A DNA stretch of 64,000 nt, taken from Escherichia coli (GTDB lineage Bacteria; Pseudomonadota; Gammaproteobacteria; Enterobacterales; Enterobacteriaceae). How positions within the stretch are numbered: the stretch's first letter is position 1; each line of letters opens with the position of its first letter. The notes below the pieces were generated by a model. The model saw only the letters and a program-made list of their open reading frames with translations, made no database searches and was not told where the DNA came from. Shown here piece after piece: positions 46,907 through 48,531 of the stretch. Position numbers and translations under genes: made by a program. The stretch lies in the NCBI RefSeq assembly GCF_051903065.1, contig NZ_CP178438.1; one strand, 5' to 3'.

Positions 46907-48265
46907 TTATGCTACGTCTTCGTACTGCGGAACCGGGTTACGGAAGCTCTTGGTGACGCAAGCCAGGTAAATCAGACCGATAGCAGCCCAGATCAGACCC
47001 AGAACCATTGAGCTTTCTTCCAGGTTAACCCACAGTGCACCAACGGTCAGCGCACCACACATCGGCAGGAACAGATACTGGAAGTGATCTTTCAGCGTCT
47101 TATTACGCTTCTCACGGATCCAGAACTGCGAGATGACCGACAGGTTAACGAAGGTAAACGCCACCAGCGCACCAAAGTTGATCAGCGCCGTAGCCATTAC
47201 CAGGTCGAAGTTGATTGCCAGCAAGGCAATCGCGCCAACCAGGATGATGTTCATCGCCGGAGTACGCCATTTCGGGTGTACATAACCGAAGAAGCTTTTC
47301 GGGAACACGCCGTCACGACCCATTACGTACATCAGACGCGCTACGCCTGCGTGCGCCGCCATACCGGACGCCAGTACGGTAATGGTGGAGAAGATCAGCG
47401 CGCCAACCTGGAACGCTTTACCCGCAACGTACAGCATAATTTCAGGCTGTGACGCATCCGGATCTTTAAAGCGAGAGATATCCGGGAAGTACAGCTGCAG
47501 GAAGTAAGTTGCAAAGATGAAGATCATGCCGCCAATCAGCGCGGTAAGGAAAATCGCACGCGGGATCACGCGCTCTGCATCTTTGGTTTCTTCCGACAGG
47601 TTGCTGATGCCGTCAAAGCCGGTAAAGGAGAAGCACAGGATTGTCGCCCCGGTAATCATCGGGATAACATGCGCATCGCCAGACCAGAATGGACGAGTGC
47701 TCGCCAGCGTACCAGCGCCTTCACCTTCAAATACGCCATAAACAACCATGCCCAGAATCACCGCGATCAGCACTACCTGCAACACGACGATTACAGTGTT
47801 GAAGTTCGCTACGGATTTCAGACTACGCAGGTTAAAGGCGGTCATAAAGGCCACCAGCGCCACCACAAACATCCACGATGGGATGGAAGGCACCAGAGCT
47901 TCAAAATAGATTTTCGCCAGCAGAATGTTGATCATCGGCGCGAACAGATAGTCGAGCAGAGAAGACCAACCCACCATAAAGCCGACAGTCGGGCTAATGG
48001 ATTTCTGGGCGTAAGTATATGCAGAGCCAGCAGAAGGATAGCGGCGAACCAGCTTCCCGTAGCTCAGAGCCGTAAACAGGATCGCAATCAATGCGAACGC
48101 ATAGGCTGTCGGCACATGACCATCCGTGAGGCCTGAAACGATACCAAAAGTATCAAACAGCGTCATCGGCTGCATATAGGCAAGACCCATCATTACAACC
48201 GGAACTAACGTAAGCGTTTTACGCAATTCCACGCGAGAGGTGTTTGGAGTAACGTTATGCGACAT
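46907..48265 (-). CDS. plaP: APC-family putrescine importer PlaP (YeeF)
   Basis: About 452 aa from [16 protein letters not shown]; 12 TM helices; AAGGAG RBS. Confidence 0.85.
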
Positions 48266-48317
48266 GGTCATTCTCCTTTACGGTGATAACCGTCGCGTAA
48301 GCAAAAAATTGCCCCAT
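48255..48317 (-). CDS. yoeI: 20-codon upstream small ORF overlapping the plaP start (YoeI-like; [20 protein letters not shown])
   Basis: My own translation: ATG at 48315-48317 to TAA at 48255-48257 on the minus strand. It contains the plaP RBS and start codon in another frame. Sequence agrees with my recollection of the K-12 small protein YoeI. Confidence 0.5.
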
Positions 48318-48413
48318 TTTTTTGGATTCCTCAGCGACAACAACTGTCGATTTTTAGTAAATATCTATCCGGTACGAAGCCCGGCCTCTTGGTATGAATG
48401 ATTGGTTTGAAGC

Positions 48414-48450
48414 AAAAAATAACCGACGCTGATGAAACGTCGGTTTTTAG
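48414..48450. terminator. Bidirectional intrinsic terminator downstream of yeeY
   Basis: AAAAAAT-AACCGACG-CTGATGAAA-CGTCGGTT-TTTAG. Confidence 0.55.
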
Positions 48451-48531
48451 TCATTTTTTGACAGCGGCGCATTGTGCCTAAATGGGGGGGAAATGACAAG
48501 AGAATGAGAGGCTTGTCATAATAATTTTTCT

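Follow-up and report, generated by a model that had tools for sequence, protein, structure and literature searches.

The small gene yoeI at the start of plaP in Escherichia coli: a plausible cis-acting translated leader of a putrescine importer

In E. coli, the start codon of plaP, the gene of a putrescine:H+ symporter, lies within another and far shorter open reading frame (ORF), which raises the question of what this ORF is and whether it is kept for its peptide, for the act of its translation or for the RNA that carries it. In the window, that is the whole stretch of 64,000 nucleotides analysed here (contig NZ_CP178438.1, assembly GCF_051903065.1), the ORF occupies positions 48255-48317 of the minus strand and consists of 20 codons and a stop, from ATG at 48317-48315 to TAA at 48257-48255. 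The first-pass annotation of this DNA had placed it correctly to the base and had put its absence from the ORF track down to a length cut-off; once this cut-off is lowered, it does appear in the mechanical ORF list. The suggested match of the peptide to the small protein YoeI of K-12 also proved right upon comparison with the annotated gene, as the two peptides are identical (yoeI of MG1655, b4678, YP_002791246.1, 2087052-2087114, minus strand) and the NCBIfam equivalog model NF033439 'small_mem_YoeI' gives 60.8 bits (cut-off 33) over residues 1-20 of 20. The 20-codon ORF is the already known and annotated E. coli small gene yoeI, which RefSeq lists as 'yoeI: membrane protein YoeI' between yeeY and plaP and whose function is given as 'uncharacterized' in K-12. 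Over 401 nt spanning yoeI with its flanks, the window and MG1655 disagree at a single base, located outside yoeI, and the yoeI region is found in 5423 of 5426 complete E. coli genomes. Searched against Pfam, the YoeI peptide gave no match; searched against Rfam (E≤1), the yoeI leader belonged to no family, STnc240 further upstream being the only match. The discovery paper of yoeI, by Hemm and colleagues in 2008, is said to include experimental detection of the peptide. Hemm et al. (2008) is also the source cited for yoeI in later work on PlaP (PMC11630599). The supplements of Adams 2021 mention neither yoeI nor plaP.

At the junction between the two genes, the coding sequence of plaP, also called yeeF (46907-48265, minus strand; 452 aa; Pfam AA_permease) is annotated from the ATG at 48265-48263, which is the second of two in-frame ATGs; the other, two codons upstream at 48269-48271 on the minus strand (MTMSHN...), is unlikely to be used because it stands only 1-2 nt from the Shine-Dalgarno (SD) sequence, and it explains why the mechanical ORF list gives plaP 454 instead of 452 aa. 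That the SD of plaP would lie inside the small ORF and that both genes would overlap out of frame had been proposed from the outset, and both points hold. The SD, AAGGAG at 48273-48278 (minus strand), lies in yoeI codons 14-15 and stands 7 nt before the plaP ATG, and orthologs are always G-rich at this position (AAGGAG, AAGGGG or ATGGGGG). The overlap, ATGTCGCATAA, spans 11 nt at 48255-48265 (minus strand) in different frames, so placed that the yoeI TAA corresponds to plaP +9..+11; the same 11-nt overlap is present in RefSeq strain 746 and in MG1655, where plaP is b2014. Frameshifting from yoeI into the plaP frame was considered and rejected in view of a TAA in the plaP frame at 48280-48278, just upstream of the plaP SD. 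On its other side, yoeI has an SD of its own, GAGGA at 48328-48332 (minus strand), 10 nt upstream of its ATG and followed by an A-rich spacer; this GAGGA is invariant in an alignment of 60 sequences, and the SD reads GAGGAA or AAGGAA in distant taxa.

Length alone does not set this ORF apart, as 77 ORFs of at least 20 aa overlap the 5-kb stretch at this locus. Comparison covered 88 loci, each from a different species, in the Enterobacteriaceae, the Erwiniaceae and Rahnella, namely 80 plaP loci taken one per species with 87-100% protein identity and 8 more distant ones from Rahnella, Cedecea, Buttiauxella, Tenebrionibacter, one Enterobacteriaceae isolate, Mixta, Pantoea and Erwinia. Conservation of the start codon had been singled out in the first-pass annotation as one of the points on which its reading could fall; an upstream ORF (uORF) beginning with ATG precedes plaP in 88/88 loci. 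The stop is TAA in all 88 as well and, since both ends are conserved across orthologous loci of different species, yoeI is clearly beyond chance. In 87 of the 88, this TAA sits at plaP +9..+11, the one exception being a frameshifted locus (L042, 1-nt insertion) where TAA falls at -4..-2 and the uORF ends 1 nt before the plaP ATG. Apart from this locus, indels are in frame: the uORF is longer by 3 nt in four loci (21 codons), shorter by 12 nt in two others (16 codons) and longer by about 126-135 nt in the three Erwiniaceae (62-65 codons), so that its overall span is 16-65 codons. Codon 3 of plaP is NNT throughout the 88 loci, and where it encodes His it is always CAT and never CAC, by which the yoeI stop is preserved through a synonymous site of plaP.

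The peptide itself is kept far less strictly. Only M-G/V-Q and, after it, a hydrophobic or aromatic character at residues 4-8 persist in YoeI as far as the Erwiniaceae; the stretch from 9 to 17 is free to vary, and the start of plaP determines HVA at 18-20. The Rahnella uORF, which reads MVQHSHYAAFSIMGITHHVG and begins MVQHSHYAAF, departs from this N-terminal pattern. In yoeI codons 2-8, the variant codon types tallied from the codon table comprise 7 synonymous and 20 non-synonymous ones, a ratio close to neutral, yet the overall rate of change in these codons is low; constraint in yoeI is therefore mainly on nucleotides. The N-terminal M-G-Q is nonetheless kept with a synonymous CAA/CAG change at Gln3, which hints at some constraint on the peptide. 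The long uORFs of Mixta, Pantoea and Erwinia (L087 1323-1511, L088 and L089) share the MGQ beginning and the same TAA end, hold clade-specific conserved stretches (RDDYGA, TRSFPVV) and have gabT directly upstream. As regards the opposite strand, an antisense ORF of 53 aa (48240-48401, plus strand) was rejected as the cause of the conservation because interspecies spacer indels are not multiples of three; a promoter scan of the plus strand from 48150 to 48335 detected no promoter-like site, which also counts against it.

Immediately 5' of the plaP SD, yoeI codons 9-13 form a mini-hairpin in the RNA, ACGGU-UAUC-ACCGU (48280-48293, minus strand), with a stem of 5 bp in which 48293-48289 pair with 48284-48280. 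Its closing pair among 60 sequences is C-G in 27, U-A in 24 and U-G in 4, its covariation score was reached by 0 of 500 shuffles, and on a neighbour-joining tree the state of the closing pair changed at least 19 times. These pair changes swap the YoeI residues V/A10 and T/A12; as both residues change together while the pair is kept, RNA structure outranks peptide sequence at the mini-hairpin. A second helix, retrieved by RNAalifold and in the minimum free energy (MFE) fold of the E. coli sequence, is a candidate for sequestering the plaP AUG: its 5' arm GCGACG (48291-48296, minus strand; yoeI codons 8-9) would pair with the 3' arm UGUCGC (48264-48259), to which the plaP AUG contributes its UG, and this helix and the mini-hairpin are mutually exclusive. 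In this candidate helix, 96% of the cells are paired but without covariation, since the 3' arm is nearly invariant, being fixed by plaP. Folding predictions gave no more masking of the plaP start with the native uORF body than with shuffled bodies, and pairing of the start region specifically to the uORF body was weakly enriched (p about 0.03-0.35 in six species). Another RNAalifold pairing, between GGGG of yoeI and CCUC of plaP, was discarded, as it is mostly G-U, without covariation and lost in divergent species.

Further upstream, hairpin P2, CGACA-GUUGU-UGUCG (48335-48349, minus strand), stops 2 nt short of the yoeI SD; within the Enterobacteriaceae the loop varies but the stem does not, and in Mixta, Pantoea and Erwinia the stem is replaced in the same place by ACACG/CGUGU, so this part of the leader is very probably RNA structure. 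It is preceded by a near-invariant leader block, AAGAGG-CCGG-N8-CCGG-AUAGAUA (48361-48390, minus strand), in which the CCGG arms of a possible hairpin P1 are invariant and the loop varies; this block may act either as RNA or as DNA. A sigma-70 promoter within it was rejected, no convincing -35/-10 pair being apparent in the block by eye or by scan, and a long-range RNAalifold pairing of the same block with plaP codons about 35-40 was set aside as mostly G-U, without covariation and lost in divergent species. The motif CGAC/GUCG recurs on the minus strand at about 48335-48499 and 48259-48296, that is in the terminator arms of STnc240, the P2 arms, yoeI codons 8-9 and the plaP start (in the forms CCGACG, CGUCGG, CGACA, UGUCGC, GCGACG and UGUCGC), so that several alternative pairings are possible on paper.

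The Rfam match just mentioned is a homolog of STnc240 with its intrinsic terminator (48412-48486, minus strand; RF02074), which scores 68.2 bits against a gathering score of 55 over the full model (1-77) and which the literature describes as an sRNA derived from the 3' end of a lost gabT (PMC8825220). A promoter scan places a promoter-like TTGTCA-N17-CACAAT in front of it (48499-48471, minus strand); an exact TTGTCA-N17/18-CA(C/A)AAT occurs in about 36 of the 88 loci, with recognisable variants in the other loci inspected. Both the promoter-like pair and the terminator are kept across genera, the spacer varying, and the element is retained despite a different or divergent upstream gene (hisG in L091, an AraC-family gene in Rahnella), the Rahnella locus being without the terminator. 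This terminator ends about 95 nt upstream of yoeI, and scanning between the two revealed no convincing promoter, which is why STnc240 may be the attenuated 5' end of a yoeI-plaP transcript and is possibly in the same transcription unit as yoeI-plaP. An 11-mer, ATTTTTTGCTT, is present twice on the minus strand, at 48301-48311 (yoeI codons 3-7) and at 48410-48420 (U-tail of the STnc240 terminator), and the A-run CAAAAAA of STnc240 is complementary to both copies, with no covariation seen; the repeat may be a low-complexity coincidence.

Conservation at the nucleotide level does not stop at the plaP start codon. Synonymous sites are unusually conserved in plaP codons 2-40 (48146-48262, minus strand), the third-position majority being 0.87-0.94 in codons 1-40 vs. 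about 0.6-0.7 after, with a sharp drop past codon 40; overall, 5.6% of the 4-fold sites of plaP are invariant, and pairwise nucleotide identity amounts to 90-94% in the early codons vs. 80-83% in the rest of the coding sequence. Codons 13-22 of this region contain a 12-bp hairpin with one bulge, GGAAUUGCGUAA...UUACGUUAGUUCC (48201-48230, minus strand), bearing a GGA motif in both loop and stem. It is kept in the Enterobacteriaceae and in Rahnella by wobble or compensatory changes, with GGGGCU...GCUUCC in Tenebrionibacter, and is missing from Cedecea and the Erwiniaceae.

A similar arrangement exists on a paralog. In K-12, puuP (b1296), whose product shares 64% identity with PlaP, follows the annotated small ORF ymjE (b4742, 54 codons; 1359177-1359341 of NC_000913.3, i.e. 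L092 1678-1842, minus strand), the product of which was detected by epitope tagging (PMC6001520). Just like yoeI, ymjE has a GAGGAA SD, carries the transporter SD inside the small ORF, overlaps the transporter gene by 11 nt with TAA at +9..+11 and contains an internal RNA hairpin. With 54-67 codons and no clear shared sequence, YmjE differs from the 20-residue YoeI and resembles in length the 62-65-codon plaP uORFs of Mixta, Pantoea and Erwinia. The ymjE-puuP arrangement is kept in Enterobacter ludwigii and Cedecea with ORFs of 61-67 codons encoding a different peptide, and is not preserved in one Pantoea and one Serratia locus. The design shared by ymjE and yoeI across genera must therefore either be older than the plaP/puuP split or have arisen twice; in the literature consulted, no link was found between the two gene pairs. 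In the 3' part of ymjE, the inner stem of a hairpin AGGUUUG...CAAACCU differs among E. coli, Enterobacter and Cedecea (L092, L093 and L094) and stays paired, as judged by eye.

What is selected at this locus, namely a good SD and ATG, an open frame of any length, a fixed stop and the RNA around the plaP SD, points to yoeI acting in cis, as a leader ORF whose translation would be coupled to plaP initiation, a reading that we hold to be somewhat better than an even bet. Translational coupling or leader control of plaP, as suspected at first sight, plausibly fits the comparative evidence. The YoeI peptide would then not be the main target of selection, as suggested by its length of 16-65 codons, the 7:20 split and residues 10 and 12 following a base pair. 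In such a mechanism, ribosomes would first bind the yoeI SD, which is exposed immediately 3' of hairpin P2, then translate through the covarying mini-hairpin and the possible AUG-sequestering helix, cross the plaP SD and terminate at the UAA, whose position is set 8 nt beyond the plaP AUG; the plaP start site would thereby be unfolded, with the terminating ribosome directly on it. We infer that yoeI translation raises or gates plaP translation. A survey of the literature on plaP, putrescine and uORFs returned nothing relevant and no uORF mechanism linked to plaP; a complementation experiment nevertheless bears on the question, in which PlaP-dependent toxin sensitivity was fully recovered with yoeI-plaP and only in part with plaP alone (PMC11630599). 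According to the primers, the insert with plaP alone was fused at its ATG to a vector RBS, and the yoeI-plaP insert had the yoeI ATG as its first codon (PMC11630599), so this complementation did not need the leader upstream of yoeI. The yoeI-plaP construct also brought the native plaP SD, and cis and trans effects are not separable there. Counting against coupling, plaP has a strong SD of its own at good spacing and could therefore initiate independently, predicted occlusion of its start region does not exceed that obtained with shuffled uORF bodies, and the AUG helix is without covariation support.

A special case of this cis model, and not its opposite, is that nascent YoeI, in particular its MGQFF, would pause or stall the ribosome upon putrescine, spermidine or another signal, and that the stalled ribosome would turn the translation of plaP, or the survival of its mRNA, on or off, along the lines proposed for speFL and mdtU. 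Such a regulated leader peptide, argued by analogy, is unlikely on balance. plaP and puuP both encode polyamine importers and both have such a uORF, and E. coli offers precedents with mdtU for spermidine and speFL for ornithine (PMC7815308); the beginning of YoeI, conserved to the Erwiniaceae with its synonymous change at Gln3, and the two mutually exclusive helices would also suit a switch. Against it, no C-terminal arrest motif is conserved, given that residues 9-17 are free and residues 18-20 set by the plaP start, the Rahnella peptide begins MVQHSHYAAF, and YmjE bears no sequence relationship to YoeI; besides, neither a terminator nor an obvious Rho site lies between the uORF and plaP.

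At a broader scale, yoeI and ymjE could be two versions of one ancient leader module controlling both putrescine importers and acting as a translational sensor, e.g. through polyamine-dependent ribosome behaviour, with the plaP mRNA starting at the STnc240 promoter and STnc240 being its prematurely terminated 5' end instead of an independent sRNA. We regard this wider proposal as speculative and rather doubtful. From the order of elements along both loci, the putative module would comprise an SD, the uORF, an internal hairpin, the transporter SD, the AUG, five bases and UAA.

Alternatively, YoeI could act in trans as a small protein binding or stabilising PlaP or another membrane target, the overlap with plaP ensuring only co-expression. 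Many E. coli small proteins bind transporters, e.g. AcrZ, the N-terminal half of YoeI is hydrophobic and the RefSeq/NCBIfam name is 'membrane protein YoeI'. The complementation data are equally compatible with this reading (PMC11630599). The hydrophobic stretch, however, is only about 12-13 residues long which, together with 16-codon orthologs, argues against a conserved membrane-spanning helix; across their 16-65 codons the orthologs share little sequence beyond MGQ, amino-acid changes follow RNA base pairing, and the 7:20 split of variants in codons 2-8 looks neutral, all of which makes a trans-acting YoeI improbable. Finally, that the sequence is kept for its DNA operator sites or for a structure of the 5' leader RNA, with the open frame as a by-product, would suit the nucleotide-level conservation of the leader and the first 40 plaP codons, as well as the constraint within the ORF bearing mainly on nucleotides, but is improbable because a by-product would not keep ATG and a properly spaced SD in 88/88 loci, limit indels to multiples of three or hold the stop at one position via a synonymous plaP site, and because the peptide has reportedly been detected experimentally (by Hemm and colleagues in 2008).

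Although yoeI itself is a rediscovered annotated gene, the comparative results, namely a fixed stop position, an RNA hairpin overriding the peptide and a matching layout at the paralog puuP, make a precise hypothesis, that of cis-acting coupling, out of what the literature had suggested only vaguely ('yoeI may affect PlaP expression'). Like the attenuator leaders hisL and trpL, the former being encoded about 3 kb away in the same region, yoeI is translated, very short and situated in a 5' leader; unlike them, it has no run of regulatory codons beyond Phe-Phe. Inspection of the sequence and a terminator scan uncovered no terminator/antiterminator between yoeI and plaP, the yoeI ORF running into plaP itself. 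With classical translational coupling, the yoeI-plaP pair has in common a stop a few nt from the downstream start, a single mRNA and a downstream SD inside the upstream ORF. Where classical coupling uses an AUGA or UGAUG overlap, however, the yoeI stop is 8 nt downstream of the plaP start and, compared with a classical coupled gene, yoeI has only 20 codons and a product seemingly without strong selection. Also comparable are mdtU-mdtJI and speFL-speF, where, as for yoeI, a short translated uORF occurs in the leader of a gene for polyamine transport or metabolism; translation of mdtU is needed for downstream expression (PMC7815308). The mdtU ORF stops 106 nt short of mdtJ and works together with Rho termination, whereas yoeI overlaps plaP directly, and MdtU is conserved at its C-terminus whereas the C-terminal half of YoeI is variable. 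If yoeI does act as a translated leader of plaP, short leader ORFs would control the uptake of polyamines in enteric bacteria as well as their export (mdtU) and synthesis (speFL).
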